Shown here: positions 3,420 to 19,077 of the stretch, in pieces
How the letters are laid out: the number at the start of each line of letters is the position of its first letter
How positions within the stretch are numbered: position 1 is the first letter of the stretch
Virus record (IMG/VR): IMGVR_UViG_3300032007_000057
Location: 64,001-88,651 of that record
Strand: one strand, 5' to 3'
Source: a virus
Taxonomy: Duplodnaviria > Heunggongvirae > Uroviricota > Caudoviricetes
Length of the DNA stretch: 24,651 bases
Translations under genes and position numbers: made by a program
The notes under the pieces: model-generated
Seen by the model: only the letters and a program-made list of their open reading frames with translations
Told to the model about the DNA's origin: nothing
The model's database searches: none

Positions 3420-3695
3420 TTAAAGTCTCTTAATGTTGTACAAGATATTGTCAATAGTTGTTAAAAAGTTAAAACTATCATTAGATAAGTTATCTTCTTT
3501 AATACAAGCTTCAGTTTCATAGATTTCTTTATCAATATAAACAGTAAAGAACTTGACTATATTTAAGTCAGGATAATACCTTACATATAGATGGTCATTG
3601 ATAGTTGCAAAATGGTTGTCTTTAGTTAAAGATACATAAAGATCTGTGACAATATCTCTATACTTAATAGTCAGTGAGTAAGTAATTTTTTCCAT
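3420..3695 (-). CDS. Hypothetical protein (91 aa)
   Basis: Fills the gap in the minus-strand block and overlaps the upstream gene by 32 nt. The SD (GGGAG) is unusually far from the ATG. Confidence 0.6.
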   Translation of the reverse strand: MEKITYSLTIKYRDIVTDLYVSLTKDNHFATINDHLYVRYYPDLNIVKFFTVYIDKEIYETEACIKEDNLSNDSFNFLTTIDNILYNIKRL

Positions 3696-4209
3696 ATAAT
3701 GTAAAGTAACTCTCCCGGTATAAATTTTTATCTAAAAGAATGTTTTCAGTATCTGGGTATAATTTAGATGCTACATATAATCCAATACTGTCAGCATATA
3801 ATTCTTCTTTATATAAGGCTATATCATACTTTCTATATGATTTAGCATAGTCAGTTTTTATAACTGGAACATTCAGTTCTTTTAAGCTATAGTGATGATT
3901 ATTATAAAGTTCATGACCTAATTCGTGAGAAATAATTTTTACAATATATTTATTTCTTTCTTTAGGTGTATGACCTTTACATCTATACCTAAATACTTTA
4001 GGTCTTAGATATACAATATGTTTTTCACCACACCAACAACCAGCATGTTTAGTAATATCCTTAGATAATTGAATATCCTTATTACCAAAGTTATCTATAA
4101 TATAGTCAGTACATCTACAGTGCATATAGTTTAAGTCTATATTGAAGTGAATATCAAAGAAATTTATACTTCTATCAAAGAGATAATGGATTAATTCTCT
4201 ATATCTTAT
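3664..4209 (-). CDS. Zinc metallopeptidase-like protein (HExxH); probable ATA start at 4209
   Basis: ISHELGHELY motif with downstream YA...EELYADSI (gluzincin-like third ligand). The GTG at 4218 lies inside the SD GAGGTGA, and the only well-spaced in-frame start-like codon is ATA at 4209. Confidence 0.7.
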   Translation of the reverse strand: MRYRELIHYLFDRSINFFDIHFNIDLNYMHCRCTDYIIDNFGNKDIQLSKDITKHAGCWCGEKHIVYLRPKVFRYRCKGHTPKERNKYIVKIISHELGHELYNNHHYSLKELNVPVIKTDYAKSYRKYDIALYKEELYADSIGLYVASKLYPDTENILLDKNLYRESYFTLYGKNYLLTDY

Positions 4210-4222
4210 AGTAATCACCTCT

Positions 4223-4269
4223 TTATTTGTTCAAAGTTCTAAGTCAACTTTTGTATATATATTATGTTA
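4223..4269. promoter_or_regulatory. Divergent-junction motif copy 1 (putative phage promoter region)
   Basis: TTATTTGTTCAAAGTTCTAAGTCAACTTTTGTATATATATTATGTTA, identical to 16696-16741 except for one extra T. It sits between divergent gene blocks. Confidence 0.8.
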
Positions 4270-4308
4270 TTGTATTGAAAGTCTTCTAATTTTATTGGAG
4301 GTGGTAGC

Positions 4309-4443
4309 ATGTGGGAAAAGTTCGTGAAAGAACTGGAGCATGCGGATAAAGTGGAAATCAACGGAAAGGAGTTTGATGCCAAGAAGCTGTTGAAGGCGTT
4401 TGACGAATACGTTGAGTGGGTTGTTGAGTTGCAGGAACAGTAA
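4309..4443 (+). CDS. Small acidic hypothetical protein (44 aa), not in ORF track
   Basis: SD GGAGG, 8-nt spacer, then ATG; MWEKFVKELEHADKVEINGKEFDAKKLLKAFDEYVEWVVELQEQ. Its stop overlaps the next SD. First gene of the block. Confidence 0.8.
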   Translation: MWEKFVKELEHADKVEINGKEFDAKKLLKAFDEYVEWVVELQEQ

Positions 4444-4456
4444 GGAGGAGTTTGAT

Positions 4457-4666
4457 ATGGTTAAGGCGGATTTGAATCTTATTAATAAGCTCATATATGT
4501 GTATCAAGAAATGTATGTGCTTCAGGCGAGTTTGGCGGATAAGGATGATAATGATAATGCGGAGAGGGCTCAGTGTATTATCAGTGAGGTAAAAGAAATT
4601 CTGGATAAGGATTTTGATTATCAGGTAACTGATGCTGATACACCAACGTTCTATATTGATGACTGA
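4457..4666 (+). CDS. Hypothetical protein (69 aa)
   Basis: SD AAGGAGG before ATG 4457; the track's TTG at 4400 lies inside the upstream small gene. Confidence 0.8.
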   Translation: MVKADLNLINKLIYVYQEMYVLQASLADKDDNDNAERAQCIISEVKEILDKDFDYQVTDADTPTFYIDD

Positions 4667-4679
4667 GGAGGGTAATAAG

Positions 4680-4856
4680 ATGACTAAAGATATCATGTCT
4701 CTTCTTGTGCTTGGGGTAGTTAGTGCGATTTCCGTTGTGGGTATGCTAGTGTCGTTTGTATTCGGAAGCTGGGTATGCGTTGCAGTTTGTATGGTTATTG
4801 CAGTTATTTCTAGTGTAGCATTTTTCTACCAGGTATGTGATATGGAGGGCGAATAA
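4680..4856 (+). CDS. Small two-helix membrane protein (58 aa)
   Basis: SD GAGGAGG before ATG 4680; two hydrophobic stretches. Confidence 0.75.
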   Translation: MTKDIMSLLVLGVVSAISVVGMLVSFVFGSWVCVAVCMVIAVISSVAFFYQVCDMEGE

Positions 4857-4857
4857 T

Positions 4858-5034
4858 ATGAACTTTTATCTTACACTTATTTATGGAAGCTTTGGCGTGA
4901 TGAGTATGTTCAGCTGTGTGTATTTTGGAGTACTTCTTAAGCAGGTAATTCCTTTTATGTTCTTTGCAGTAATTGGGTTTTTCCTGCTGATTATGGGATA
5001 TAAGGTTAGTCCATATAAGGAGGATAATAAATGA
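4858..5034 (+). CDS. Small two-helix membrane protein (58 aa)
   Basis: SD GGAGG before ATG 4858; two hydrophobic stretches. Confidence 0.75.
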   Translation: MNFYLTLIYGSFGVMSMFSCVYFGVLLKQVIPFMFFAVIGFFLLIMGYKVSPYKEDNK

Positions 5035-5612
5035 TTTATACTAATCTTGAACTTAAAGTTGATGAAAAAGAATTTACTTTTGGAAAACTTAAAGGAGTAA
5101 CCCTTGGAGAAAGGGGTAGAGGCAGATTTGAAGTATTTCTGCCTGTACCCCCTACATTTGAAAAACTTGAGAAAGGAATGAATGCTAATCTTAGTATTGG
5201 CCTTACGCAAAACAAAAAGTTTAGAATTAATAATGGTGATAATGGTAAGTTGTATCTGATTCTTACGTCTCAGGCTGGATATACCCGAAGAGGTTCTGGT
5301 TATATCTATGAGTTTAAATTGAATGAAAATGATGAGCCAAAGGTAAAGGTCCTTGCTACAGCCAATGGCGCAGATGGAGATGCTGGAAGAATTGGTAGTT
5401 GGGAGGCACAGGTTATGGAAGTAAAACCTGGTGCTATTGTAAAGGTAGTATGGTCTGGGTCTGGTTATGGTATTTGTCCAACATATTATTTTGTTGATGA
5501 AGAAGGGGATGTTGTTGGTGTAGACGAAGATAATATCCAAGATTTTTATGATTATCGCAATGTGGAGATGCCAGAGGCATTTAAAAGAAAGTTCAATAAG
5601 GAGGAAAATTAA
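5031..5612 (+). CDS. Hypothetical Gly-rich beta-type protein (193 aa)
   Basis: SD AAGGAGG, ATGA overlap with the previous gene. LGERGRGR, GYTRRGSG and GADGDAGRIGSW look like conserved motifs, but I cannot name a family. Confidence 0.8.
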   Translation: MIYTNLELKVDEKEFTFGKLKGVTLGERGRGRFEVFLPVPPTFEKLEKGMNANLSIGLTQNKKFRINNGDNGKLYLILTSQAGYTRRGSGYIYEFKLNENDEPKVKVLATANGADGDAGRIGSWEAQVMEVKPGAIVKVVWSGSGYGICPTYYFVDEEGDVVGVDEDNIQDFYDYRNVEMPEAFKRKFNKEEN

Positions 5613-5613
5613 T

Positions 5614-6210
5614 ATGAAAGACCTTTATTGGGAGCAGCTTGTGAAAGACGCTAAAGATACTTCTGTTGATAAAACAGTTCAGGTAGCATTTTTGACTGAA
5701 GCTAATGGAGCATTTTGTCCTACTCCATTTATGTCATTTGGGCCTAAGGTAGATTTGTTTGAAAACAATGATGAGCTTGAAAAAGCCTTTAAGGAAATTG
5801 TAGAGTCATGTAAAGAAATTGATCCAGATATTTCGGAGGATAAACTGAAGAACTTTGCAATTCTGGAGATGCCCATTAATATGATGTTTGATTTGCTTAA
5901 GAGAGAAACTGAATTCTCTATTCTTAACATTCATTTGAAAATTACTCCAGATCAATGTTACGTGCTGGATAAAGCTTCTGATTTTATTCATGACCCTGAA
6001 GTTTCTGCTCAGTCTAAGCTTAGCATTCTGGCACTGAATTATGCTTTAAAGGTTATGAGGTCAATTGACCTTGATTGTGATGAGGGTTCTCATGTTGGAT
6101 ATATCGTAGAGAAACCTGATATGAAGATTACATTGAGTGGAGCGGTAGAGAAATATCCTATTAAGTACTTTGGGGATTGGGATATTGTGATTTATAGGGT
6201 TAGTAGATGA
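5614..6210 (+). CDS. Hypothetical protein (198 aa)
   Basis: SD AAGGAGG before ATG 5614, which is preferred over the track start at 5548. Confidence 0.8.
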   Translation: MKDLYWEQLVKDAKDTSVDKTVQVAFLTEANGAFCPTPFMSFGPKVDLFENNDELEKAFKEIVESCKEIDPDISEDKLKNFAILEMPINMMFDLLKRETEFSILNIHLKITPDQCYVLDKASDFIHDPEVSAQSKLSILALNYALKVMRSIDLDCDEGSHVGYIVEKPDMKITLSGAVEKYPIKYFGDWDIVIYRVSR

Positions 6211-6223
6211 GGAGGAAATTGTT

Positions 6224-6601
6224 ATGGCTGATTTTGTAATGCTTTATGATAATCTAAAAGATACAAGAGAGATTTATTGTGACTATGATGAGATTAAGTA
6301 TCATATTGAGAAGATTTTGAAAGTTAATAAAGCTAGATTGACGCTGGATTATGTGGCGGTAGACCAAAGAATAAAAGTTGTTGTTAGATCAACTGTTTCC
6401 AATGATAGTGTTATCCAACGGGTATATGACGAGCTAAATACTTGGTTTGGTACAACAGATGTAGCAGTAGGAGATAGTAGTCCGAAGTATTATTTGTATT
6501 ATAATAAAGAAAAGGATATGGCTAGGATTGTTTTAGATAATGAACAGGTGTCAGTAAAGGATGGTAAACTAATTGCAGTAATTCAATTTAAAGTACTTTA
6601 A
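6224..6601 (+). CDS. Hypothetical protein (125 aa)
   Basis: SD GAGGAGG; tight gene packing. Confidence 0.8.
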   Translation: MADFVMLYDNLKDTREIYCDYDEIKYHIEKILKVNKARLTLDYVAVDQRIKVVVRSTVSNDSVIQRVYDELNTWFGTTDVAVGDSSPKYYLYYNKEKDMARIVLDNEQVSVKDGKLIAVIQFKVL

Positions 6602-6622
6602 TAAAGAAAGGAGATAATTATA

Positions 6623-6811
6623 ATGGAGAGTATTATGGGAGATAATCTGGTGTTGGAGTTGCATATGGAACAAGCAGTTAGTCATCTTAAGAAGGCAAAG
6701 AATCTTCTTGATGCGGATAAATATGGAGAAGCTAGGCATGAGATTACTAAAGCTCTCCTAGAAGCAGAAGAAATGAAGATGCTGTATAACAAACTTAATA
6801 ATAAAATTTAA
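6623..6811 (+). CDS. Small helical hypothetical protein (62 aa)
   Basis: SD AAAGGAG; amphipathic helical pattern. Confidence 0.75.
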   Translation: MESIMGDNLVLELHMEQAVSHLKKAKNLLDADKYGEARHEITKALLEAEEMKMLYNKLNNKI

Positions 6812-6821
6812 GTATTGAGAA

Positions 6822-6860
6822 AGGGAGATGTCTATATAAGATGTCTCCCTTATATTTTTT
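6822..6860 (+). terminator. Intrinsic terminator-like hairpin inside the + block
   Basis: AGGGAGATGTCT-atata-AGATGTCTCCCT (12 bp, two G-U pairs) followed by TATATTTTTT. Confidence 0.7.
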
Positions 6861-6878
6861 ATCTATGGAGATGATAGT

Positions 6879-7310
6879 ATGTATCAGGATGACATTCTAG
6901 ATATGCTTAAAAATCTTGGTTTAAAGGAAATTAAGATAAAAGATGATTTATGGTCTGGATACATATTTGATTGTGCTAATTATTGTAATGATAAAATGGC
7001 TCCTGAAGAAAAGAGATATCTTCAATGGAGTCCTGCTGATGGATTTACCTTTTTACATGGAGAAGAGGAGTATCGGAAATTTAAAGAATCAGATAGATAT
7101 GACTCTGATGTAGACTGGATTGATGCAGTAATTGATTCCGAAACAGATTGTGTTATTTTTGATATTGGATATTATGAGGAGGCTATGGTACCGTATGAAC
7201 AAGGTGGGTATTGCACTGCAGTGTGTGGGGTGGTTCCTGTAAAATTCTTGGAAGAAAATGGAATTAATTTGGTTTCATTTAAAGAGGAAGGGAATAAAGA
7301 TGCAGTGTAA
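6879..7310 (+). CDS. Acidic hypothetical protein (143 aa)
   Basis: SD GGAG; tight gene packing. Confidence 0.8.
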   Translation: MYQDDILDMLKNLGLKEIKIKDDLWSGYIFDCANYCNDKMAPEEKRYLQWSPADGFTFLHGEEEYRKFKESDRYDSDVDWIDAVIDSETDCVIFDIGYYEEAMVPYEQGGYCTAVCGVVPVKFLEENGINLVSFKEEGNKDAV

Positions 7311-7470
7311 TATCGACATTAATATTGAGTTTTATGATGGTCCAGACGGGCAGCATGTGTATATTGCTGAAGAAAATTCTTCTGGGTGTGACTATAAAGT
7401 AGATAATTTGAAGGATGTAATGGTTCATATTGAAGAGTACATCCGTAATAGGAGGGTTTTTAATGAGTAA
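7300..7470 (+). CDS. Hypothetical protein (56 aa), possible HicB-like beta-beta-beta-alpha fold
   Basis: SD GAGGAAGG before ATG 7300. The pattern IEFxDGPDGxxVYIA...G...VDNLKDVMxHIEEYI loosely parallels the HicB N-domain. Confidence 0.6.
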   Translation: MQCNIDINIEFYDGPDGQHVYIAEENSSGCDYKVDNLKDVMVHIEEYIRNRRVFNE

Positions 7471-7759
7471 GAAATATAATGTGTCATATAAAAGCGTGTT
7501 CCTTTATAATAATGATGGAATTACAGTACTTTTTCCAGGTTTGCCAGGATGTTATACTTATGGTACTTCAGATTCAAAAGCAAAACAAATGGCAATTGAT
7601 GCTCTTAAAGTTTATTGTGAAGAGCTCTTAAGAACAGGCCCCCTGCCTACAAAGATGTCTGATTTGGAGATTAGTAAATGGATTGAAGATCATAAGAAAG
7701 AATGGGGTAAGGCAAAATACTCCATTAAAACAATCATTTCAAATGTGGAGGAATTTTAA
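7463..7759 (+). CDS. hicB: HicB-family antitoxin-like protein (98 aa; no recognisable C-terminal DNA-binding domain)
   Basis: YKSVFLYNNDGITVLFPGLPGCYTYGTSDSKAKQMAIDALKVY...GPLP matches the HicB consensus (V.FPDLPGC.T.G.T.EEA..MA.DAL..Y....G..IP). SD AGGAGG before ATG 7463. Confidence 0.75.
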   Translation: MSKKYNVSYKSVFLYNNDGITVLFPGLPGCYTYGTSDSKAKQMAIDALKVYCEELLRTGPLPTKMSDLEISKWIEDHKKEWGKAKYSIKTIISNVEEF

Positions 7760-7762
7760 ATT

Positions 7763-7963
7763 ATGAAATATTGGGTTACATATAAAGTAATTGCTAGGGG
7801 TGTAGTTGATGTAGAAGCCAATTCAGAGCAAGAAGCTCTTGATAAAGCATACGAAGATATCTCTAATAGGGATGTAAATATGGTTTCAGATATATCAGAT
7901 TATGAAGTTGTTATGGTGGAAGATGAGAATGGTAAAGTATCTGAGGGGTCTTTCATAATATAA
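7763..7963 (+). CDS. Small acidic phage protein, possibly DpnD/PcfM-like
   Basis: KYWVTYKV...VDVEANSEQEALDKA pattern; SD GGAGG. Confidence 0.6.
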   Translation: MKYWVTYKVIARGVVDVEANSEQEALDKAYEDISNRDVNMVSDISDYEVVMVEDENGKVSEGSFII

Positions 7964-7982
7964 TAATTAGGAGGTATATGGA

Positions 7983-8435
7983 ATGAATTATGATGAGATC
8001 AGCATTAGTAATTATTTCAGAGTTACAGATGAGAATAAACTTGATGAGTTGGAAAAAGATTTGTTCTGTATTGGCAATTATGAAAGAGAAATCAATGTAG
8101 CAAAGTTTAAGGATGAGAAAGGTAATACTTATAGGAAGTACTCTTGTTATGGGTCATTGGAGTACGGGTCATATGACGATTCTGATCTTGAAAGATTTTA
8201 TAAAGAACTTCAAAAGATTCTTCCTGAAAGTGAAGTTTTTGTTCTTATGTATATCGGATATGAAGGTCTTAGATATGTGGTGTCAGGATTTACAGTAGTA
8301 ACTAAGGATAAAATTGATTATAGGAATGTAGATGAATTGATTCAAGAAGTGGTAGGACTTCCTGATTTTAATTATAGGAAGTTTGAAGAGTGTTATGATG
8401 AAGGTTATATGATTGAATCTAAGGAGGATGAATAA
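7983..8435 (+). CDS. Hypothetical protein (150 aa)
   Basis: SD AGGAGG; tight gene packing. Confidence 0.8.
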   Translation: MNYDEISISNYFRVTDENKLDELEKDLFCIGNYEREINVAKFKDEKGNTYRKYSCYGSLEYGSYDDSDLERFYKELQKILPESEVFVLMYIGYEGLRYVVSGFTVVTKDKIDYRNVDELIQEVVGLPDFNYRKFEECYDEGYMIESKEDE

Positions 8436-8437
8436 TT

Positions 8438-8791
8438 ATGTATAGTAAAAAAATCGTTACGACAATGGATGTAGAAATGATTATTTCTGACCTGGAATAT
8501 GAACTTAATACCGATGGCCCTGCGTTTGAGAATTATTTTGAAGAAATTGATTTCCTTCGTAAAGAATTGGGGGACCAGATCGTGTATCCTATATTGTTTG
8601 AACTAATGGAACTCGCAAGAAATATGAAGACAGAGCATGCAACTAGAGTCTTTAGCATTAATCGTAATTGTAAAAATGAGCTATTGATCGGATGCATGTT
8701 GCGTGTAATTAATAAGGATGGTATGGGGAATCCGATTGTAAAGGCAACAATCAACTTTAGTGATGAAAATAAAATTGAAGGGAGAAACTAA
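8438..8791 (+). CDS. Hypothetical protein (117 aa)
   Basis: SD AAGGAGG inside the upstream gene's 3' end. Confidence 0.8.
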   Translation: MYSKKIVTTMDVEMIISDLEYELNTDGPAFENYFEEIDFLRKELGDQIVYPILFELMELARNMKTEHATRVFSINRNCKNELLIGCMLRVINKDGMGNPIVKATINFSDENKIEGRN

Positions 8792-8794
8792 CCG

Positions 8795-9166
8795 ATGAAT
8801 GTGAAAACTAATTTTCTGGAAGAGACCATGCAGGAGATTATTGGATCCAATCATGGGGAGAATGAAATTGCGTATGTGGTTGTGAGATCTAAGCCCCATA
8901 ATCTAGCAAATGTGACGTGGGAATCATTTAAAAAAGCGATTAAAGGATTTGAGTATGATGCTGGGTATGGGCTCAATGAGATTTCCTTGATGTGTAAGAT
9001 TGTGTTTACGGATGGGAATTATCTTGAGCGTCACGAGTATGATGGGGCTGAAAATTGGTGGTATGTTGTAGTTCCTAAATTGGATGTTGAGGTTGTGGAA
9101 TATAATCCGGAGATTCACAAGTTTAAAGAAAGCTGGTATGGCCGTGGAGATGATGATGATGAATAA
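8795..9166 (+). CDS. Hypothetical phage protein (123 aa)
   Basis: SD GGGAG. YDAGYG...IVFTDGNYLERHEYDGAENW looks like a conserved phage motif, but I cannot name a family. Confidence 0.8.
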   Translation: MNVKTNFLEETMQEIIGSNHGENEIAYVVVRSKPHNLANVTWESFKKAIKGFEYDAGYGLNEISLMCKIVFTDGNYLERHEYDGAENWWYVVVPKLDVEVVEYNPEIHKFKESWYGRGDDDDE

Positions 9167-10025
9167 ATTTAATGAAGAAAAAGAAAATGAACTTCTTGAA
9201 ATCCTTAAAAAAGGAATTGATGTGTATGCAGATTATAGAGATGAAGTAAATATTAATCTGCTAAAAAGGATTTCAGATAAAAAAGAAGAAATGCATAGTA
9301 CTTGGATGGAAGCGTTTAAAGATGAACTATTTGATTGGTTTGATCCGGATGATATCTTTGAAACAATGAAATCTCATATGAAAGATATTGCAGCTCAAAT
9401 TGGTCTTGACTATGATGATTTTGAAGAAGAGGATAAAGCAAAGTTTGATACTGTATTTTTTGAAAATGTCTGGTTTAAGCCGGATTATGACCATTATCTT
9501 AAACAAAAACTTTGTGTAGATATTTTTGTAGATACTGGTGATTATAATTTTGATTTAGGCTGTAATGAAGTTTATCCGCATTATAATGGGGATAGAATGG
9601 AGCCTATTCAGGATGAGTGTTGTTTAGTATGGCTTACTAAGACTCAAGGATATACTAAGGAAGATCTTGAAAAAAATCTTCTTTCTGATGAAGTCTTTGA
9701 TAATGAAATCTTTGATAATGATTTCTTTGAATCAATTTATGATGAGCTAAATAATTGTACTAGTCATATGAATAGTTTGGTATTTCTTAAAAGACTTACT
9801 CTAAAGGAATATCTTGATATGAAAGATGCTAATACTATTCATATCGATAAAGATGATGTGTGTGGATTGTTTGATAAGTGGAATGGAGCTGGAGGTCTTT
9901 TGGAAATTAAACTTGAAAAAGATATTGATATTCCAAAGGAGATGGTCCATGAAGCAGTTGTTGATGAGATGTTTAAGTATAATATCCATGATGTATATGG
10001 TGTAAATGATAGCTTTTGGGAGTGA
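9159..10025 (+). CDS. Acidic hypothetical protein (about 288 aa)
   Basis: SD GGAG followed by four in-frame ATGs (9150-9159); 9159 gives the typical spacing. Confidence 0.8.
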   Translation: MNKFNEEKENELLEILKKGIDVYADYRDEVNINLLKRISDKKEEMHSTWMEAFKDELFDWFDPDDIFETMKSHMKDIAAQIGLDYDDFEEEDKAKFDTVFFENVWFKPDYDHYLKQKLCVDIFVDTGDYNFDLGCNEVYPHYNGDRMEPIQDECCLVWLTKTQGYTKEDLEKNLLSDEVFDNEIFDNDFFESIYDELNNCTSHMNSLVFLKRLTLKEYLDMKDANTIHIDKDDVCGLFDKWNGAGGLLEIKLEKDIDIPKEMVHEAVVDEMFKYNIHDVYGVNDSFWE

Positions 10026-10031
10026 GGCTAA

Positions 10032-10184
10032 ATGATTCTGACAGCTAGTGTAGTATTGGTAGGATATCTTGTATCATTTATTGTACCACTAAATATGTAT
10101 CAGAGATGTATTGTTGATTACATTATGATTGGGTTTTCTGGATGGTTCCTTTGGAAGCTTATTATTACCGAGGAGGAAAAATAA
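10032..10184 (+). CDS. Small membrane protein (50 aa), not in ORF track
   Basis: SD GGGAG, 9-nt spacer, then ATG; MILTASVVLVGYLVSFIVPLNMYQRCIVDYIMIGFSGWFLWKLIITEEEK. Fills the gap exactly and ends 1 nt before the next start. Confidence 0.7.
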   Translation: MILTASVVLVGYLVSFIVPLNMYQRCIVDYIMIGFSGWFLWKLIITEEEK

Positions 10185-10185
10185 T

Positions 10186-10596
10186 ATGACTATGAGAGAG
10201 CTTAAGTATACTGTAGTTTTTGAGGATGAGGCTAAAAAACTTAGGGAGGGCTGTGTTAATTTTAAGGATCTTGATTTTACCCTTAGGAGCATTTTTGCTA
10301 AAGAGAAAATGATTCCAATTATGGTGAATGAGGAAGAGCAGAAACTTGCGTATGAGGATACTCTGGATTTTCAAAAATGGTTTTGCTCAAAGATGAATTA
10401 TGAAGACGTACTGTTTATTGGAGATTCTATCACCGGAGATATTATGATGGATAAGGATGATAATATCAATCTTAATGATCCAGAGGTTCCTTATAGATAT
10501 AAATCGGAAGAAGAGTGGAGAAAAGTTGCTACAGTAACTATTGAGATTCGTGGTCCTCTTGATATTGAGGAGGAGGATAATGAATATGTGGAATAA
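10186..10596 (+). CDS. Hypothetical protein (136 aa)
   Basis: SD GAGGAGG before ATG 10186, which is preferred over the track start at 10129. Confidence 0.8.
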   Translation: MTMRELKYTVVFEDEAKKLREGCVNFKDLDFTLRSIFAKEKMIPIMVNEEEQKLAYEDTLDFQKWFCSKMNYEDVLFIGDSITGDIMMDKDDNINLNDPEVPYRYKSEEEWRKVATVTIEIRGPLDIEEEDNEYVE

Positions 10597-11089
10597 AACA
10601 AAAGAAGTTCTTAAATGGATTGTATTTATTCTCTTCAGTAGTTTTGTCTGGTGGGTAATGTTGTATGTAGTAGGTTCTACTAAAAGCATTATTCCATATC
10701 TGATTGGGTTCATTGTAGTATTTCCATATCTTGAAGAATGGTTTAAGCATAATCATTCTGAAACAAACTTTAAAGCACACCTGTTTGGCGTTCTGGAGTT
10801 GATTAGTATTGCTATTATGATTCTGTGCATTGGTGAGGGGGTACTTACTACAGACCAGAAAGTAACTCTCATTATTGCAAAATTTATGGCTGTAATGATG
10901 CACTGGTCTACAGGAAGACTTCACTTTAAGTATCATACTAAAGAATCCTTTCTAGTGTGTTTTGCTCTTCATATGCTATTTAATGCCTATGTGCATTATG
11001 CAAAAGTTCAAGCATTTGATGTTAGTTTGTTTATGCCACACTTGATTATTTATCTGGCAACTTATGTTAATGAAAATAAAGTACAATAA
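10586..11089 (+). CDS. PrsW/CPBP-like intramembrane glutamic/metallo-protease
   Basis: About six hydrophobic segments with PYLEEWFK, MHWSTG and ALHMLFN in the order of the PrsW-family motifs (PxxEExxK; H; HxxxN). SD GAGGAGG. Confidence 0.6.
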   Translation: MWNKTKEVLKWIVFILFSSFVWWVMLYVVGSTKSIIPYLIGFIVVFPYLEEWFKHNHSETNFKAHLFGVLELISIAIMILCIGEGVLTTDQKVTLIIAKFMAVMMHWSTGRLHFKYHTKESFLVCFALHMLFNAYVHYAKVQAFDVSLFMPHLIIYLATYVNENKVQ

Positions 11090-11104
11090 GGGGAGGAATA
11101 TATT

Positions 11105-11833
11105 ATGATTACTAAAGAAAAAATTGAGAAGTATAATTATAAGTATACCGTTATTATTGGCCAAGACATTTTGGAGCCACTAGCTGATGAATTTGGTGGG
11201 TTTGATTTGGTTCATGGACCGTTTGATGTCTGCAGAGAGTTTAAGTTTTTGAGTAAGTTTTTATCCGGTGATGTATTTGAAAAATTTATAACTTATATTA
11301 TTGGGCGGTATGAGGGTGTTGAGGCTTCGTTAAAATCTAAAAAGACGACTAGCTGTGTAGATATTGATGGTTGGCGCATTTGGTATAATATTAGTCTTGA
11401 TGGCATTGAGATTATTTTGGAATCTGATGAAGATTTTGATGTGGATAACCTAGACCATGAGACGGTATCGAATGATTCAGTTAGTGAAGCTATTGAAGAC
11501 CGGTTAAAAGAATATCTTGCCAAATATATTGCATTGGAGGATAAACACGAACAAGTTACACGTAAGTTATATCCGGTATTTAAAAAGATGTTGCTAGTTC
11601 ATTTGACCTCGGAGAGTCCTGATTTTGCATATTATTCAAAAATTAAATTTAGAGATGATTTCGCTAAAGTAGTAGATGATTCTGCAAGTAGATTTGAAAA
11701 CGCTAAATATGACGGAGTTCCTATCAAGGATATTTTTGAGAAGTTGATTGAGATGTTCAATTGTGATGATACACATGATTATAGATATGATTATGATAGT
11801 AGAGGTTTCTCATTCGCAATTAGGAAGGTTTAA
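11105..11833 (+). CDS. Acidic hypothetical protein (242 aa)
   Basis: SD GGGAGG; last gene before the convergent terminator. Confidence 0.8.
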   Translation: MITKEKIEKYNYKYTVIIGQDILEPLADEFGGFDLVHGPFDVCREFKFLSKFLSGDVFEKFITYIIGRYEGVEASLKSKKTTSCVDIDGWRIWYNISLDGIEIILESDEDFDVDNLDHETVSNDSVSEAIEDRLKEYLAKYIALEDKHEQVTRKLYPVFKKMLLVHLTSESPDFAYYSKIKFRDDFAKVVDDSASRFENAKYDGVPIKDIFEKLIEMFNCDDTHDYRYDYDSRGFSFAIRKV

Positions 11834-11878
11834 AAACAAAGAAACCCTTAGGATATACCTAGGGGTTTCTTTTTGTTT
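11834..11878. terminator. Bidirectional intrinsic terminator at convergent junction
   Basis: AGAAACCCTTAGG-atata-CCTAGGGGTTTCT (13 bp, one G-U pair) with flanking A and T tracts. Confidence 0.9.
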
Positions 11879-11917
11879 ATGTTTGATTAGTTAAACATTA
11901 ACGTGGATAATGTCTTG

Positions 11918-12910
11918 TTAATTAACCATTATACAAAGTAATGCTATAAAAAGAACGGCTCTAATTTTCTCTCTATCTGGTTCTATGCCAACATCTAATA
12001 ATGTTTTAGCAGCTAATGTAGGTATTGGTTGCATAACTAGACCTCTACCTGCAGCTACAGTAATGCCAACTTTATTGATACCTTCTCTATCTCTATATTG
12101 TCTTAAAAATCTTAAGATAATATTCTGCATAGTTGAATCAACATCATTATAATCATGAATTTTCACACAAATATCTTCAACATCAATTTCTGAAGCACCT
12201 GATAATTGTGCAATATACTCTATAAATTTTGGGTTCATAGTGACTTCATTAATATTATTTAAAGCCTTATCTAAGTCTTGTCTAATATCATCAGTATCTG
12301 CTTTACCAACATTTTTATAATATCTTCTAGCTAAATGTTTAACTGACTGATTTACTTTATTATAAACATCGACTATATACCTATAATAGTCATATAGTGA
12401 AACTTTTTCTGTAAAGTTCTTAAGATATTTTTCCAATGTTTCATCGGCTACTTTAATTACAAAAACTGCCCATCCTTGTTTAGCAACAGTAGCAGCATGA
12501 GCATTCATTAAAGTATATTCCATTAATGATTTGTCCATAATAGGAAAGTATTTCTTTTTGATATATGACAGGACTATGGCAGTATAGTATCTGCTAATGT
12601 CATAAACAGTTTTATCAACATTACCATCAGCTACAAACACCAATATATAAAGTAAAAGCATATTATAATAAGTATTAGATGCAACAAAACCACCCGGCAT
12701 AAAAGAGCCAAATTGTTTAACTTGGCCTTCAGTCATGTTAGCAGTAGTTAAAAACTTGTTCCATAGATTCTTGGTTATATAATAACCGCCATCTATTTTA
12801 CCTACTTCATTTAAAGCTTTATTACTTTCCGTACCAACTAAGTGAGCCATTTCAGCTTTATTAGGGTAGGAGTTTTGAAGTATAGATATGACTAAATTTT
12901 GTAGTTCTAT
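11918..12910 (-). CDS. Helical protein of unknown function, possibly a conserved jumbo-phage core/virion protein; probable ATA start at 12910 (330 aa) rather than ATG 12850
   Basis: Perfect SD AAGGAGGTGA (12927-12918) lies 7 nt before an in-frame ATA, and the ATG at 12850 has no SD. The segment YFPIMDKSLMEYTLMNAHAATVAKQGW recalls a phiKZ-group conserved protein (from memory, unverified). Confidence 0.75.
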   Translation of the reverse strand: MELQNLVISILQNSYPNKAEMAHLVGTESNKALNEVGKIDGGYYITKNLWNKFLTTANMTEGQVKQFGSFMPGGFVASNTYYNMLLLYILVFVADGNVDKTVYDISRYYTAIVLSYIKKKYFPIMDKSLMEYTLMNAHAATVAKQGWAVFVIKVADETLEKYLKNFTEKVSLYDYYRYIVDVYNKVNQSVKHLARRYYKNVGKADTDDIRQDLDKALNNINEVTMNPKFIEYIAQLSGASEIDVEDICVKIHDYNDVDSTMQNIILRFLRQYRDREGINKVGITVAAGRGLVMQPIPTLAAKTLLDVGIEPDREKIRAVLFIALLCIMVN

Positions 12911-12936
12911 TTTAGGCTCACCTCCTTCTCTATATT

Positions 12937-12968
12937 AAAAATAAGGAGTTCTCGCAAAGGAGAACCCC
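12937..12968 (-). terminator. Intrinsic terminator (minus strand)
   Basis: GGGGTTCTC-ctttgc-GAGAACTCC followed by TTATTTTT on the minus strand, just after the stop at 12974. Confidence 0.8.
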
Positions 12969-12973
12969 ATATT

Positions 12974-13489
12974 TTAGAAAACTATTTCTATATTATCTAA
13001 GTCTTCCTTAGTTGAAGCTGAATTAATTTGAGCTCTAAAAATCTGCTTCTTAAGATGCATTGATTTATAATGCTTAAGCATCTGAAGAAGAACACTTTCC
13101 ATAGTTTCTATGGGTACATTTTCAATAACAACATTATTTGCCTGAACTAAATAGTCTGAAGTAATCCCTGTAGCTTTATTTAATGTAATAGAACCATTCA
13201 TCTTATTGCAGTCGGTTTCATCAAACTGCATTAAATAGCCTTCTTCTGTCGTAAAACTGCCCTTAACGGCAGTATTAAATTTATTTTCAAGTTCCCCTAA
13301 TCTATAGTTTTTTAACTCTTCAATAGTAGGTTCTGGAATTGCAACGCATTCATAATAAGTGCCATCGTCAGATTCTATAATGTATGCTTTCTGAGTCTCG
13401 TTACACCAGTTAGCTACAGTTGCATATAAATCCTGATCATAGTCAGGTTTTATAAATTTAGTTCCAATATAGTTTATACTATCGCTCAT
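12974..13489 (-). CDS. Tail fibre assembly protein (DUF4376-like)
   Basis: IPEPTIEELK...GYLMQFDETD...KQIFRAQINSASTKEDLDNIEIVF pattern; directly downstream of the tail-fibre gene. Confidence 0.75.
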   Translation of the reverse strand: MSDSINYIGTKFIKPDYDQDLYATVANWCNETQKAYIIESDDGTYYECVAIPEPTIEELKNYRLGELENKFNTAVKGSFTTEEGYLMQFDETDCNKMNGSITLNKATGITSDYLVQANNVVIENVPIETMESVLLQMLKHYKSMHLKKQIFRAQINSASTKEDLDNIEIVF

Positions 13490-13507
13490 AATTTAAAAAG
13501 TCCTTTC

Positions 13508-14674
13508 TTATTCAAACATAGAGTCAATTTGACTATTGGTTGCTAAGGTAAGATAGTCTGTACTGATTTTACCATTAGTATCTGATACAGGAACACTTCT
13601 TGAATCTACAGTAGGTACTTCTCTAGCAGTAACTGCAATACTCTGAAGTGAAGTATCTTTTAAAACACCCTTATTAGATATAATATTATCAATATTTGGT
13701 GAAATATCGGTAGTAACTTGTTCTGATAAATATGAAACATCAAACCAAGAACTATCTAATAACCCAGTCTCCGGATTAGAGATAGGGAAGTATTTACCTG
13801 AAATATTACCCTTTTTAAGAGGAGAATCAATAGAACCAAAATATCCATTGACAGAAGTAGCATCTGTCTCTACATTAGCTTCAAGAGTAAAGTCGGTAAA
13901 CTCAACCTTAAGCATAAATCTGTAATTAATACTTCTAGGTCTAGTTTCAGACTGTTCTAATTTACCCTTACCCTGATCAGTAGTATAAGCAGATTTATTA
14001 ATAATAAACTCTGAATGATTACCATCCGTTCCATTTAACTTATTATAAGCAGAGGTAATCTTATCAGTTAAAGCTAAGCCAATATCTTTTTCCTCACTAT
14101 TTAAATTAGCTCCATTAACTGGATACACTGGTATAATATGAGTATGCTCTTTTATAGAATCTGGAGTATACGCACCAAATAATGATGAATCATCAGAAGT
14201 AGCATTGCCAATACTCCTTAAATAAATCCCTCTTAAATTTGGGACGGTAAATCTGGCTCCATGGATATCATCTTTACTTCCTAAAGTAATAACATAAAAT
14301 CCGCAAGGGTCGATGTTATTAGGTACAGATCTTGAAAATCCCTGAGCATTTGCCCAAGCAGCATATTGGTCTAAATCAAGTGCAGTATCTTTAATTAGCT
14401 CCCATAATTTAGGATATGACTCGGCATCTAAGTATCTACCATCAGCCCAAATCCAACCATTGGGCATATTACCATTAGGACCCTCAGTATAAGGTATTGA
14501 CGTTGGTAATATACTTCCTATAGGTAAAGCATCAAACTTACTTAAGAAATCTAAAATATACTGGTCTCTGGCTTCTAAAGTATCTATCTGATTATTATGA
14601 GCACTAGAAGATACAGATGTATTAATTTTAGTTTTAGCTGTAATTAAATTAGAAGGAAATGCAATTCCAGCCAT
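13508..14674 (-). CDS. Tail fibre protein with phage tail-collar domain
   Basis: LPIGSILP...PNGWIWADG...YPKLW...FTVPNLRGIYLRS collar motifs, DSIKEHTH metal-binding motif, ETRPRSI tip motif. SD AAGGAG. Confidence 0.85.
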   Translation of the reverse strand: MAGIAFPSNLITAKTKINTSVSSSAHNNQIDTLEARDQYILDFLSKFDALPIGSILPTSIPYTEGPNGNMPNGWIWADGRYLDAESYPKLWELIKDTALDLDQYAAWANAQGFSRSVPNNIDPCGFYVITLGSKDDIHGARFTVPNLRGIYLRSIGNATSDDSSLFGAYTPDSIKEHTHIIPVYPVNGANLNSEEKDIGLALTDKITSAYNKLNGTDGNHSEFIINKSAYTTDQGKGKLEQSETRPRSINYRFMLKVEFTDFTLEANVETDATSVNGYFGSIDSPLKKGNISGKYFPISNPETGLLDSSWFDVSYLSEQVTTDISPNIDNIISNKGVLKDTSLQSIAVTAREVPTVDSRSVPVSDTNGKISTDYLTLATNSQIDSMFE

Positions 14675-14702
14675 ATAAGTTATTCAACTCCTTTATAAAT
14701 TT

Positions 14703-16658
14703 TTATCCTAAACCAGCAATAGATAACATATCTTTACTCCACTGGTTTATAAGTTCTTCATGTGATAATACATTAGGATTAGTTGGGTCAACATTAATAT
14801 AATAATAATGACAAGTACTGTCTTGTCCTTGTCTATGAATTCTGGATTCAGCTTGCATAAGGTCAGTACTTCTAAATGGTCTATTTAAAAATATAATAGT
14901 ATCGCAGCAATACTGTAATCCATCTGTTCCAGTTCCTAATGCTTGTATTGTTCCTAACATAACTCTTATATTAGGATTATCTTTAAATTTATTAAAGTTA
15001 GCATTAAAGTCAGCAGCACTTTCTACTAGCATACTTTCAATATCTAATCTTTTTAATAAATCATGTAGAGTAGCTAAAGGTTCTCTAAAAGTAGAAAATA
15101 TTAATACTTTCTTACCAGCATTATCTATAATGTTTTTAATAGTATTTAAGTTTTCACTTACTACTGCGTTAAGTAATCTAATTTTATTTCTAACAAAGAA
15201 TTCGCCAATAGCTTTACCCATTAATATAAATCTATAAGATGTGATCTCTTTTCGGGTTTGTATAATCTGTTTTCCAATCTCACTATTGGTTGTTCTTATA
15301 TCTTTTTCAATAGCTCTAATTTCTGCTATAAACTCTTTATACTTATCATTACCCATAGGATCCATTTTTTCTAATGCTTTAACTTTCTTATAATAATCTT
15401 CTAAGTAATCATTACCATAACTTATACCTTGTACTCGTATTGAATCTTGGAATAATGATAATAACCTACTTAACTGCTCATATAATCTACTAACATCAGA
15501 TTTGTTCCTAGCATCTAATCCTTCTTTAACGAAATCTTTAATATGCTGCATAGCTACTGGTAATGTAAAGGGCTTGATATTATTAATCTTTAAAGTAATG
15601 TCATATTTCTTTTTATCTGGTAAATTAAGTTCCTTTGAAGCTTCTTTTCTAATCATATATAACTTAAGTCTTTCCTGTAAAACTGCAGAAGCAATAGCAT
15701 CATATTTACCTGTATTATACAAATGTTTAAATATTCTTTGTGCCGTATCTGATGCAGCAAACATAGGATCTAACATAGTCATTACTGGTACAAACTCAGA
15801 TGCCAAAGCTTTGATAGGAGTACCAGATAAAGCTAATACATTCTTTATCTTATATCTATCCTGAATATCCTTTACATTCTGTACTCTGGCAGTATTAGCA
15901 TATCTAAAGTTCTGTATTTCATCAACTATCATACTCTTAGGATTAGATGTTATGTAATTAGTAACTTTATCTAAAGCTTCATAATTACAAATGTAAAATT
16001 TGTCTACAACATTCAGTACATCTTCTTTTAAAAACTTGTTTGGTAAAAGAGCTGTGATAGAATTCTTCCAAGATAATAAAGTACTCTTAGGTGCTGTTAT
16101 AATACATGGGAATAAGTCAAAGGCATAAACAGTTGCTATTGCAGTGAAGGTTTTGCCCAGGCCTTGTTCAAAGGCCATTAAGAATCCATTTAACCCAACT
16201 TTATGAGTTGCATTATAATAATGATACAAGAATTCTTTTTGGTAAGGTTTAAGTTCAACACCTAACTTATTTAATTTAGAAGTAATTTCTGATGGAACTT
16301 CTTCCATAGGTTTTTCTAGAGCAACAATTCTAGGATGCTGATTTAATAATTCTATAACCTGTTTATAAGACTCTCTTTTGAAGCGTTCATATAGCCACTC
16401 AAAAACTTTTTTAACTTCAACTACAAAGAACTCTTCAAAAGAAATATTAGCTCCACCAAAGAAAACACTTCTAACCACTATAGAAAAGATGTGATAAGTC
16501 ATAGAAACTCCAGAAGTACTAATATTAGGAATATTTCTACCAAAGAACATTCTTATATCTTTTTTAAGTTCATACACATTTAATCCAGATATAACTAGTC
16601 TTTTACCAACTCTTAAAGAGTTATCTGTAGTAATTTGAACATTTTTTAGTAGTGCAAT
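14703..16658 (-). CDS. SNF2-family helicase/ATPase; possible ATT start at 16658 (651 aa) rather than GTG 16577
   Basis: LKPYQ Q-motif, Walker A EQGLGKT, Walker B IVDEIQ, motif III LSGTP, motif VI QAESRIHRQGQ. The frame stays open for 27 codons upstream of the GTG, to an ATT preceded by GGTGAT. Confidence 0.9.
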   Translation of the reverse strand: MALLKNVQITTDNSLRVGKRLVISGLNVYELKKDIRMFFGRNIPNISTSGVSMTYHIFSIVVRSVFFGGANISFEEFFVVEVKKVFEWLYERFKRESYKQVIELLNQHPRIVALEKPMEEVPSEITSKLNKLGVELKPYQKEFLYHYYNATHKVGLNGFLMAFEQGLGKTFTAIATVYAFDLFPCIITAPKSTLLSWKNSITALLPNKFLKEDVLNVVDKFYICNYEALDKVTNYITSNPKSMIVDEIQNFRYANTARVQNVKDIQDRYKIKNVLALSGTPIKALASEFVPVMTMLDPMFAASDTAQRIFKHLYNTGKYDAIASAVLQERLKLYMIRKEASKELNLPDKKKYDITLKINNIKPFTLPVAMQHIKDFVKEGLDARNKSDVSRLYEQLSRLLSLFQDSIRVQGISYGNDYLEDYYKKVKALEKMDPMGNDKYKEFIAEIRAIEKDIRTTNSEIGKQIIQTRKEITSYRFILMGKAIGEFFVRNKIRLLNAVVSENLNTIKNIIDNAGKKVLIFSTFREPLATLHDLLKRLDIESMLVESAADFNANFNKFKDNPNIRVMLGTIQALGTGTDGLQYCCDTIIFLNRPFRSTDLMQAESRIHRQGQDSTCHYYYINVDPTNPNVLSHEELINQWSKDMLSIAGLG

Positions 16659-16695
16659 GGTTAATCACCAACTTTCTTTTCAAAAGGTTTTCTCC

Positions 16696-16741
16696 TTATT
16701 TGTTCAAAGTCTAAGTCAACTTTTGTATATATATTATGTTA
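16696..16741. promoter_or_regulatory. Divergent-junction motif copy 2 (putative phage promoter region)
   Basis: TTATTTGTTCAAAGTCTAAGTCAACTTTTGTATATATATTATGTTA; near-identical to 4223-4269 and in the same genomic context. Confidence 0.8.
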
Positions 16742-17064: not shown

Positions 17065-17277
17065 ATGATAAGCTCTATTTATCCTATATGTAAGATTTTT
17101 ACTTCAGTATTTGCAGTACTATGTTTGATGGAAGGGTTGTATGTAGTTTGGCTATTGATTCGAGGGGATAAAGAAACATTTTATAAACTTTATCCAATAT
17201 GGAAAAAGCTATACTGGAGGAGTATTCCAGTTTTTATGATCGCAATTTTTGTTGAAATATGGTTTGAGTTGAGGTGA
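17065..17277 (+). CDS. Small two-helix membrane protein, paralog B (70 aa)
   Basis: SD GAGG; clear tandem paralog of the upstream gene. Confidence 0.8.
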   Translation: MISSIYPICKIFTSVFAVLCLMEGLYVVWLLIRGDKETFYKLYPIWKKLYWRSIPVFMIAIFVEIWFELR

Positions 17278-17283
17278 TAAGCT

Positions 17284-19077
17284 ATGGCAATTAGACATAT
17301 GTCAGAATTTGAGCATATCCAGAAGAGAAGTGAACTGTACATTAGAAGTACAGAAACTCCTCTGTATCTTTTAACAGAGCTCATAGATAATGCTTCTGAT
17401 GAGTTCTTAAGTGGATATGCAGATACAATTGTAATTACACTTAACTATAAGGATAAAGTCTATTCAGTTGCAGATAATGGAAGAGGTATTCCAATTCATC
17501 AAAAAGGTATGGAGCATGATGTACCTATTGAAATTGTAACTGAATTGAGAACTGGTGGTAAGTTTGATAACGACCTTTATAATCAGAAATCTGGTTTACA
17601 TGGAGAGGGTCTTACAATTGTAAATGCACTAAGTGAATATCTTGAGATTATTGTAAAAGAGAAAAAGAATAGATATAGAAAGTATACATTTAAACAATCT
17701 GAAGATAAAGACATTACTCCTGAAATTATTGATAAAGAACAAAAGTTTAGCACTAAGTTGGAGTTTAAACCAGATGCTAAATATTTTGATTCTTTGGATA
17801 TTGATAAGGACACAGTTATTGAAAGAGCTAAAGGTATCCTTATCAGTGCAGAACAAGGAAGGAATGCAAATGTTTTTGTTCAGATTATTCCTGTTGATGG
17901 AATTCCACAAGTTATTCAGGTAAAGAATGATATTCTGGAGAAGTTTGCAGATAGGTTGGACAATAAATACTTTACTGAAACTATTACAGGTATTAGAGAA
18001 GCAGATGGTAAAAAGATAAAAGATTCTGTAACTCTATACTTTGGTAGAGTTGAAGATACTACTTCATTTGTGTTTAGAGGTGTAGTTAACACTCTACCTA
18101 TGGATATGGGTAATCATCTTCAATTCTTTAGAAAAGCGTTTAATACTTACTTGTATGAAAAGGCTACTAAAGAGAATATGTATGTTGATGAGGATAGTAT
18201 GGTAGTAGGTATTAATATCCTGTGTATTGCCAGATTATCAGACCCGGCATTTACTGGTCAACAAAAGTATTCTCTTAGTGGTGGTGTGAACAAGTATTCT
18301 TACATTTTTGACCAAGATAAAGTTAATAAGATTTTAGACAAATATCCTAAATTTGTCAAGAGTCAATGTGAACTTGCTCAAGCTATTAAAATGAGTAAAG
18401 ACACTAAAAAACTGGATGTTAAAAAATCTAGGTCAAAAGTTAATGTAGAATCGTTGAGAGATTGTTCTTCCAAAAATGTTGAAGAAAGAGAATTGTACAT
18501 TGTTGAAGGGCAGTCTGCTGGTGGCAATCTTGTTAAAGGCAGAGATATTAGAAAACATGCTATTCTTCCACTTAGGGGAAAAATACTTAATGTATTGAAT
18601 AGTACCTTTGACAGAATTGTTGATAGTAAAACTTTGGGGGCTATATTCAACTCAATAGGAATTAAGCCAAACGATAATGAATTGTCAACATTGAGGTATG
18701 GTAAAGTAATTATCATGGCTGACGCAGATCCTGATGGTTATCATGTTTGTTTGCTATTAGTATCTTTCTTTGAAAAGTTTGCTGAAAAACTTATCAAAGA
18801 AGGTAAACTATTTGTAGGAATCACTCCATTATTTACAACTAGGATAAAGGGTAAATTTGTACCAATTTATACTAGAGAAGATATGGAGAAGTATAAGGCT
18901 GAAGGTAATCCAATTTCTAGAATTAAGGGATTGGGAGAATTAAATGCCAATGACTTGGCAGTATGTGCATTTGATAATAAGTATAGAAGATTGATTCAGG
19001 TAACAGAATCTAATCAATCTGAAATTGAGGCAATTTGGAAAAATAAGCAAAAGCTTATTGAGGATTACATCAAATAA
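17284..19077 (+). CDS. gyrB: Type IIA topoisomerase ATPase/TOPRIM subunit (GyrB/ParE-like)
   Basis: GHKL motifs ELIDNASDE, DNGRGIP, GGKF, GLHGEG..VNALS; TOPRIM motifs IVEGQSAGG, PLRGKILN, MADADPDG, RIKGLGE. The symbol is a family label; gyrase versus topo IV is not resolved. Confidence 0.95.
   Translation: MAIRHMSEFEHIQKRSELYIRSTETPLYLLTELIDNASDEFLSGYADTIVITLNYKDKVYSVADNGRGIPIHQKGMEHDVPIEIVTELRTGGKFDNDLYNQKSGLHGEGLTIVNALSEYLEIIVKEKKNRYRKYTFKQSEDKDITPEIIDKEQKFSTKLEFKPDAKYFDSLDIDKDTVIERAKGILISAEQGRNANVFVQIIPVDGIPQVIQVKNDILEKFADRLDNKYFTETITGIREADGKKIKDSVTLYFGRVEDTTSFVFRGVVNTLPMDMGNHLQFFRKAFNTYLYEKATKENMYVDEDSMVVGINILCIARLSDPAFTGQQKYSLSGGVNKYSYIFDQDKVNKILDKYPKFVKSQCELAQAIKMSKDTKKLDVKKSRSKVNVESLRDCSSKNVEERELYIVEGQSAGGNLVKGRDIRKHAILPLRGKILNVLNSTFDRIVDSKTLGAIFNSIGIKPNDNELSTLRYGKVIIMADADPDGYHVCLLLVSFFEKFAEKLIKEGKLFVGITPLFTTRIKGKFVPIYTREDMEKYKAEGNPISRIKGLGELNANDLAVCAFDNKYRRLIQVTESNQSEIEAIWKNKQKLIEDYIK

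Follow-up and report, generated by a model that had tools for sequence, protein, structure and literature searches.

Conserved near-cognate start codons behind extended Shine-Dalgarno sequences in a large phage genome

The window analyzed here, a stretch of 24,651 nucleotides from the viral record IMGVR_UViG_3300032007_000057, corresponds, as the reverse complement, to bases 1-24651 of a complete IMG/VR phage genome of 284,119 bp (G000). A preliminary description of the window had proposed that three genes on its minus strand, referred to below as (a), (b) and (c), start at ATA, ATA and ATT, respectively. Comparison with relatives taken from four other assemblies indicates that all three sites are real near-cognate start codons and that the N-terminal extensions they open are coding. 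The complete genome contains 13 supported starts of this kind (10 ATA, 2 ATT and 1 CTG) among ~324 open reading frames (ORFs), which corresponds to ~4% of the ORFs or about one gene in 25. The positions of these starts, their conservation, their genome-wide enrichment and their link to one type of Shine-Dalgarno (SD) sequence were observed in the sequence analysis. With a probability that we put at roughly 65%, the codons are read by the host machinery by means of an extended SD, which would probably fix a low dose of the encoded proteins.

Near-cognate start codons in the window

The features at the three sites are listed below in window coordinates. The SD score is the contiguous match to AGAAAGGAGGTGATC at aligned spacing.

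12945..12968, minus strand: intrinsic-terminator-like hairpin with T-run (9-bp stem, 5 GC pairs, tail TTATTTTT)
12918..12927, minus strand: extended SD AAGGAGGTGA of gene (a), SD score 25, aligned spacing 10
12908..12910, minus strand: ATA start codon of gene (a), in frame, conserved in relatives
11918..12910, minus strand: gene (a), 330 aa, without a known family; shortened to 310 aa by gene callers
4251..4265, minus strand: promoter-like motif ATAATATATATACAA ahead of gene (b), occurring on one strand only
4214..4222, minus strand: extended SD AGAGGTGAT of gene (b), with tact between it and the ATA
4207..4209, minus strand: ATA start codon of gene (b), conserved in relatives
3664..4209, minus strand: gene (b), 181 aa, with the HExxH motif HELGHE and without a Pfam match
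16723..16737, minus strand: second ATAATATATATACAA copy, upstream of gene (c)
16664..16669, minus strand: SD GGTGAT of gene (c), spaced like GGTGAT-5 nt-ATG in the gyrB-like gene (17273-17286)
16656..16658, minus strand: ATT start codon of the SNF2 helicase gene (c), conserved in relatives
14703..16658, minus strand: gene (c), SNF2-family helicase of 651 aa (SNF2-rel_dom, ResIII, Helicase_C)
16621..16697, minus strand: possible upstream ORF of gene (c), predicted; AAGGAG (16697-16692), 8 nt, TTG 16683, 20 codons, stop 16623-16621

At site (a) the sequence is as the preliminary description had it. The terminator-like hairpin (12968-12945) ends 17 nt upstream of the SD, AAGGAGGTGA is followed by gcctaaa and ATA, and ATG, GTG and TTG are absent from the next 20 nt. 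The first in-frame ATG (12850) is located 20 codons past the ATA and has no SD (score 4). The residues after the ATA codon are ELQNLVISILQNSYPNK, giving M-ELQNLVISILQNSYPNK if the protein is Met-initiated. The ATA is kept in relatives with 86% (L004) and 80% identity (L005, from the complete 275-kb relative G001) as well as in L037. Among these and the window the spacer between SD and ATA varies by 1-2 nt, and thus nothing 5' of the ATA is coding. A homologue with 61% identity (L036) has TTG-GAA aligned with the ATA-GAA of the window, and the extension is 70% identical to that of the G001 orthologue, compared with 80% for the rest of the protein. In public databases the gene is mostly called in the 310-aa form that starts at the downstream ATG. 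The GTG used by gene callers in G001 and L037 ('MILI' and 'MSSI' products) was rejected as a start: it belongs to the SD, and in the window and L004 it is not in frame.

Site (b) and the comparison site AGGTGATAACT-ATG at 21974 were likewise described correctly. The only earlier in-frame canonical codon, GTG 4218, falls within the SD, and in the relatives L006/L007 it is not in frame, which excludes it as a start; the next canonical codon is ATG 4125. An ATA is aligned with the start of (b) in L006/L007, where no in-frame canonical codon occurs back to the preceding stop. The homologue in L008/L009 reads TTG-AAA-TAT-AGA at the position of ATA-AGA-TAT-AGA in the window. A G001 sequence at 266584 (ATT, 'IRYR...') was discarded as an orthologue of (b), as its similarity is limited to the first four residues.

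The description of site (c) was also accurate, including its comparison site GGTGATAAGCT-ATG at 17273-17286. The SD is followed by taacc and ATT, with 27 codons before GTG 16577. The ATT is kept in L011 and in L012/G001, and the closest relative (L010, 85% identical) has AAGGAG, 7 nt and ATG at the aligned codon, so that M-S-L-L in L010 corresponds to I-A-L-L in the window. With an ATG at the aligned codon of the closest relative, the earlier ranking of (c) as the weakest case does not stand. A frameshift or homopolymer error was considered, as the ORF starting at TTG 16683 enters an A6 run in which a 1-nt change would join it to the SNF2 frame. It was ruled out by L011/L012, which lack the A-run yet keep the ATT, and by the aligned ATG of L010. 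The putative upstream ORF is in a different frame and overlaps the ATT start. L011/L012 harbor a 14-codon ORF at this position, which would itself begin at ATA, and L010, with ATG for the helicase, is without it.

At all three sites ATA or ATT is thus kept in independent assemblies, and a more distant homologue reads TTG at (a), TTG at (b) and ATG at (c), a canonical codon in each case. The preliminary description had asked whether the extensions are conserved and begin with ATG elsewhere; of the three sites, an aligned ATG occurs at (c). In five comparisons the protein identity of extension and remainder was 0.70/0.80, 0.69/0.69, 0.77/0.53, 0.59/0.65 and 0.43/0.47, and 23-54% of the identical residues within the extensions are encoded by different codons. 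Judged by these alignments, the extensions are conserved to the same degree as the remainder of each protein. The extensions, 13-59 codons in length, are free of stops, while the other two frames hold 1-8 stops. In the gene at genome position 248090, the GNAT domain begins upstream of the first canonical start.

Near-cognate starts across the genome

ORFs were called with a simple self-written finder (324 in G000). An orphan SD was defined as a strong SD with no canonical start at spacing 4-13 in any frame, and the scan was limited to the open stretch before each gene's first canonical codon. An in-frame ATA follows 10 of the 17 orphan SDs of G000 at spacing 7-10, where ATA accounts for 5.7% of codons (binomial P = 3.5e-8); the pattern therefore exceeds chance. 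Where the first canonical start is at least 10 codons downstream, a near-cognate codon was found in 11/11 cases. The whole genome of G001 was scanned in the same manner and contains 8-9 near-cognate starts, with ATA after five of 11 orphan SDs (P = 7.6e-4). A crude count of ATA at a fixed distance from every SD-like word gave no peak because ATA is so common, and the signal is visible only with restriction to orphan SDs at the heads of ORFs. The control scan of 400 kb of Parvimonas sp., a low-GC Firmicute (393 ORFs, 28% GC), gave one orphan SD and no near-cognate site. In this anaerobe (Parvimonas sp. G1425, L160, ~1722-1720, minus strand) infC starts at ATA (GGAGGTG, ttatt, ATA-AAA-GAG), like the S. 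aureus infC described below, and gene callers would be misled by an ATG that lies in frame 17 codons upstream. The scan missed this gene because of that ATG; therefore the near-cognate counts are lower bounds.

The sites in genome coordinates, with (-) marking the minus strand, are as follows.

11742 (site a), 20443 (site b), 93997, 118936, 191145, 192377, 193835, 238679, 248090 and (-)118275: ATA
7994 (site c) and (-)109711: ATT
(-)280955: CTG, RNA polymerase (RNAP) beta'-like gene; the G001 orthologue has TTG at the same codon
128687 and (-)135371: ambiguous

Start codons of G000/G001 orthologues pair as ATA/ATA (five times) and as ATT/ATT, ATA/CTG and CTG/TTG (once each). Recognizable functions comprise tail-fibre-like proteins (238679, 193835 and its paralogue 192377), a GNAT fusion (248090), the SNF2 helicase, the HExxH protein and the RNAP subunit. 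The RNAP beta'-like gene (950 aa, genome 279756-280955, minus strand, outside the window) has its apparent CTG start behind GGAAGGAG.

Shine-Dalgarno type, strand and operon context

The near-cognate starts are closely linked to one type of SD. GGTGA occurs within 20 nt upstream of 11/12 ATA/ATT sites compared with 34/309 canonical starts (Fisher P = 1.4e-9), and therefore roughly one in four of the genes that have a GGTGA-type SD start at a weak codon. The aligned spacing of 8-10 nt has the same peak as in ATG genes. When the spacing has its usual value of 9, GGAGG-TGA supplies an in-frame TGA, by which the frame is closed two codons ahead of the start. Canonical codons near the window SDs are the GTG of (b), inside the SD, and the TTG at (c), which is out of frame.

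The sites recur with a strand bias, as had been proposed: 10/13 are located on the genome plus strand (the window minus strand), whereas the ORFs are split 161:163 between strands. The split of near-cognate sites is 8:1 in G001. The accompanying claim that none of the genes on the opposite strand, for which early-type is a presumptive label, needs such a start proved wrong, as at least three sites lie there. The earlier proposal also placed the starts at transcription-unit heads or behind terminators. This applies to the sites that are the first genes after a strand switch ((b), (c) and 118936) and to those downstream of terminators ((a), 191145 and 248090), but not to 192377, 193835 and 238679, which begin only 15-20 nt past the upstream stop codon. 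Near-cognate genes are long (median 441 aa vs 187 aa), and gene length may bias detection and hence the strand bias.

The genome plus strand is also distinguished by a motif and by its SD flavour. This motif, ATAATATATATACAA, the core of the 'junction motif', occurs on one strand only (8:0 in G000 and 12:0 in G001, allowing at most one mismatch). Its copies lie at the heads of genome plus-strand gene runs, with (T)GAACAAATAAGGAG ~20 nt later:

window 16737-16723 and 4265-4251, minus strand; genome plus strand 7915, 20387, 145318, 153024, 163615, 183042 and 225933: ATAATATATATACAA motif

The motif resembles the early promoters of AR9/phiKZ-type virion RNAPs, which are extended and AT-rich, with AAATATATATTAT-N6-G (PMC5312081). 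The SD word (T)AAGGAGG is found 11 times on the plus and 45 times on the minus strand of G000, and GAGGTGA 22 and 11 times; the corresponding ratios in G001 are 15:33 and 22:5. These strand-specific flavours suggest two gene classes that would differ in the style of their initiation regions.

Phage, host and initiation machinery

The G000 genome has direct terminal repeats and a GC content of 32%, and the standard genetic code fits it. It encodes two sets of homologues of the multisubunit RNAP subunits beta and beta', and the nearest cultured relatives of the SNF2 helicase of the window are helicases of phiKZ-like jumbo phages, e.g. Goslar and OBP. Because of these two features, G000 is assigned on sequence grounds to the phiKZ/AR9-type jumbo phages. 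The SD consensus GGAGGTGAT is complementary to the 3' end of Firmicute-type 16S rRNA, and the host is apparently a Firmicute. A host search with the gyrB-like protein as query in bacterial genomes gave no match, nor did blastn against cultured phages.

The preliminary description had suggested that initiation fidelity might be relaxed by the phage itself, through replacement or inhibition of initiation factor IF3 or through a phage initiator tRNA, or that AUA might be edited. The searches of the complete G000 genome for infC-like, tRNA-fMet and deaminase genes, which it had called for, gave none of them. Profiles for IF3_N, IF3_C, IF1, IF2 and S21 (PF00707, PF05198, PF01176, PF11987 and PF01165), with positive controls in 12-14 reference genomes, had no match at E<=1 in G000, which speaks against a fidelity switch run by the phage. 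Neither was a CDA-type (cytidine/adenosine) deaminase domain found in the genome, and A-to-I editing would leave the ATT and CTG starts unexplained.

None of the nine tRNAs of G000 has a CAU anticodon. One tRNA has the anticodon UAU:

genome 57053-57128: tRNA(UAU), with G1:C72 paired, C11:G24 and A31:U39

Initiator tRNAs are characterized by a 1:72 mismatch, three G:C pairs at 29-31:39-41 and A11:U24. In its anticodon stem the tRNA(UAU) possesses only one of these three G:C pairs, and its acceptor stem is Ile-like; by these features it is an Ile-type elongator and not an initiator. In mitochondria (genetic codes 2 and 5), AUA serves as a start and is recoded to Met throughout. AUA initiates in G000 as well, but internal AUA behaves as Ile: across 146 orthologue pairs, Ile is the aligned residue for 61% of the 920 internal ATA codons and Met for 2.6%, a pattern like that of ATT and ATC. 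According to these alignments AUA is not recoded to Met in G000.

Relation to known systems

In Staphylococcus aureus, non-canonical starts have been shown for infC, ccpN, citZ (AUA) and cvfC1 (AUU) by Ribo-Ret and reporters (Kohl et al. 2026, PMC13009471). All of them have an extended SD and give ~10-30% of the AUG output, and that of ccpN is also present in Bacillus subtilis (PMC13009471). The G000 sites share with these the Firmicute-type ribosome, an AUA or AUU at normal aligned spacing behind a strong SD extended on its start-proximal side, conservation of the start among relatives and its omission from annotation. In S. aureus, however, four genes on a ~2.8-Mb chromosome are concerned and were identified by Ribo-Ret and reporters, whereas the 13 of ~324 ORFs in G000 and the 8-9 in G001 were recognized from sequence. 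Weak starts are thus ~25x more frequent in G000 (~4% of ORFs vs four genes per genome). Furthermore, the S. aureus genes are regulators, whereas the near-cognate genes of G000 are phage structural and replication genes.

Starts at AUU, AUA and AUC have been reviewed by He et al. (2017, PMC5499595), who note that in a suitable context AUA can match the activity of AUG in vitro. In Escherichia coli, infC and pcnB start at AUU, with autoregulation by IF3 (PMC5499595). By analogy, a near-cognate codon disfavoured by IF3 may also hold expression low in G000. Unlike the E. coli cases, G000 has no infC and no evident feedback loop, uses mostly AUA and needs a long Firmicute-type SD. A few Firmicute genes are already known to use this mechanism, but its frequency in G000 is unusually high; a literature search found no paper on dense use of near-cognate starts in phages.

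Because standard gene callers accept only ATG, GTG and TTG, at least 13 G000 proteins are shortened at the N-terminus by 13-59 residues. Protein (a), with 330 aa but a database form of 310 aa, and the GNAT domain that is cut at its start are examples. Very probably many proteins of uncultured Firmicute phages suffer the same loss. The pattern suggests that phages may routinely use the combination of codon and SD to set protein stoichiometry, and the G000 sites offer naturally occurring initiation regions in which the capacity of an extended SD to compensate for a mismatched start codon could be measured.

Proposed mechanism and alternative explanations

In the reading we favour, the SD of the mRNA, extended on its start-proximal side (GGAGGUGA(U)), would pair with the 3' tail of the host's Firmicute-type 16S rRNA over as many as 10 nt. 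The helix would fix the codon ~9 nt past the GGAGG core (aligned spacing 8-10) in the P site, where host fMet-tRNA could initiate on AUA, AUU or CUG with a single mismatch. The yield, judged by the analogy of S. aureus, would be ~10-30% of that of AUG and IF3-sensitive. The role may be a fixed low dose of large low-copy proteins, namely the tail-fibre-like proteins, the SNF2 helicase, the HExxH protein, the GNAT fusion and the RNAP beta'-like protein, and at several sites an upstream terminator would add to the weak start. Decoding by the host initiator tRNA, a lowered yield and a role in dosage are all likely on this analogy, and among the functions offered in the preliminary description the dosage limiter appears the most plausible in view of the S. 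aureus yields. Several points weigh against this reading. An AUA mRNA with an optimized initiation region equalled AUG in vitro (PMC5499595), which makes attenuation in the host uncertain, and retention of ATA could partly reflect AT mutation bias instead of selection. The sites at 118936, 191145 and 109711 have no orthologue in G001. Finally, the ORF and SD heuristics were self-made, and selection on SD strength renders the comparison of SD scores partly circular.

The main rival is near-neutral drift from ATG to ATA, which would be tolerated behind a long SD in a genome of 32% GC and would leave real starts with no regulatory purpose. This is possible, if considerably less probable than dosage control. 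It would account for the predominance of ATA, which is one transition away from ATG (10/13), for the ATG in the closest relative of (c) and for the exchanges of ATA/CTG and CTG/TTG between orthologues, and it agrees with the in vitro equality of AUA and AUG. However, near-cognate status is retained in 6/6 comparisons of G000/G001 orthologues, whose proteins are 40-80% identical, S. aureus reporters lost 3- to 10-fold in vivo (PMC13009471), and the sites are concentrated in long genes and on one strand. The strand bias in both genomes would also fit a switch timed by the phage, in which the genes are translated well only when fidelity falls, e.g. when IF3 is inhibited, depleted or modified by an unrecognized phage protein. 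The biased strand indeed carries its own promoter-like motif and SD flavour, and IF3 discriminates against near-cognate starts (PMC13009471). Yet the complete genome has no homologue of IF3, IF1, IF2, S21 or a deaminase and no initiator-type tRNA, the kinds of gene (helicase, RNAP subunit, tail-fibre-like) and their operon positions are mixed, and the bias may stem from gene length and detectability, which makes such a switch unlikely. A variant of this idea, equally tentative, concerns phiKZ/AR9-like Firmicute jumbo phages in general: near-cognate starts, the GGAGGUGA SD and the promoter-like motif might together mark a strand-segregated class whose translation tracks the ratio of IF3 to ribosomes during host shutdown. 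If so, this class would constitute a built-in translational timer that works without a phage initiation factor.

Two further explanations fare worse. The proteins might begin at the next ATG or GTG, with the upstream stretch as an untranslated leader, or the ATA and ATT codons might be assembly errors. Public gene callers did choose the downstream ATG for (a), but that ATG lacks an SD, the extensions are conserved as protein with synonymous changes and run for up to 59 codons without a stop, the aligned codon of homologues is a canonical start, and the same codon occurs in at least four independent assemblies; this explanation is very improbable. We give still less credence to special decoding, be it AUA read as Met in a mitochondria-like manner, tRNA(UAU) acting as initiator, or A-to-I editing. 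The presence of a phage tRNA with a UAU anticodon is in its favour, whereas the elongator-like pairs and Ile-like acceptor stem of this tRNA, the alignment of internal ATA with Ile, the absence of a deaminase domain from G000 and the ATT and CTG starts, for which editing cannot account, all argue against it.

Other features of the genome

The RNAP genes of G000 are located as follows.

genome 208499-209854, 216381-216851, 275005-276147 and 279756-280181, all minus strand: homologues of multisubunit RNAP beta/beta'

Both sets thus lie on the strand opposite the ATAATATATATACAA motif. The phiKZ-like phage helicases that are nearest to the SNF2 helicase of the window are virion-associated. The tRNA island (L038, genome 54173-60084) contains the tRNA-Ile(UAU), whose T-loop is unusual (AUCAUAC, with A at position 54), and a tRNA-Asn(GUU) at genome 56117-56187 that was found by Rfam and missed by ARAGORN. 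Two further ARAGORN calls are a 'tRNA(CUA)' that folds poorly and a tRNA-Gln of 95 nt whose extra arm is long, and a match to drum-RNA in the island is below threshold. A third copy of the 30-nt junction motif (L003 1501-1530, genome 225930-225959) differs by 3 mismatches and is located at the 3' end of opposite-strand genes. No gene on the same strand follows for ~2 kb, and this copy may be an orphan or antisense promoter.

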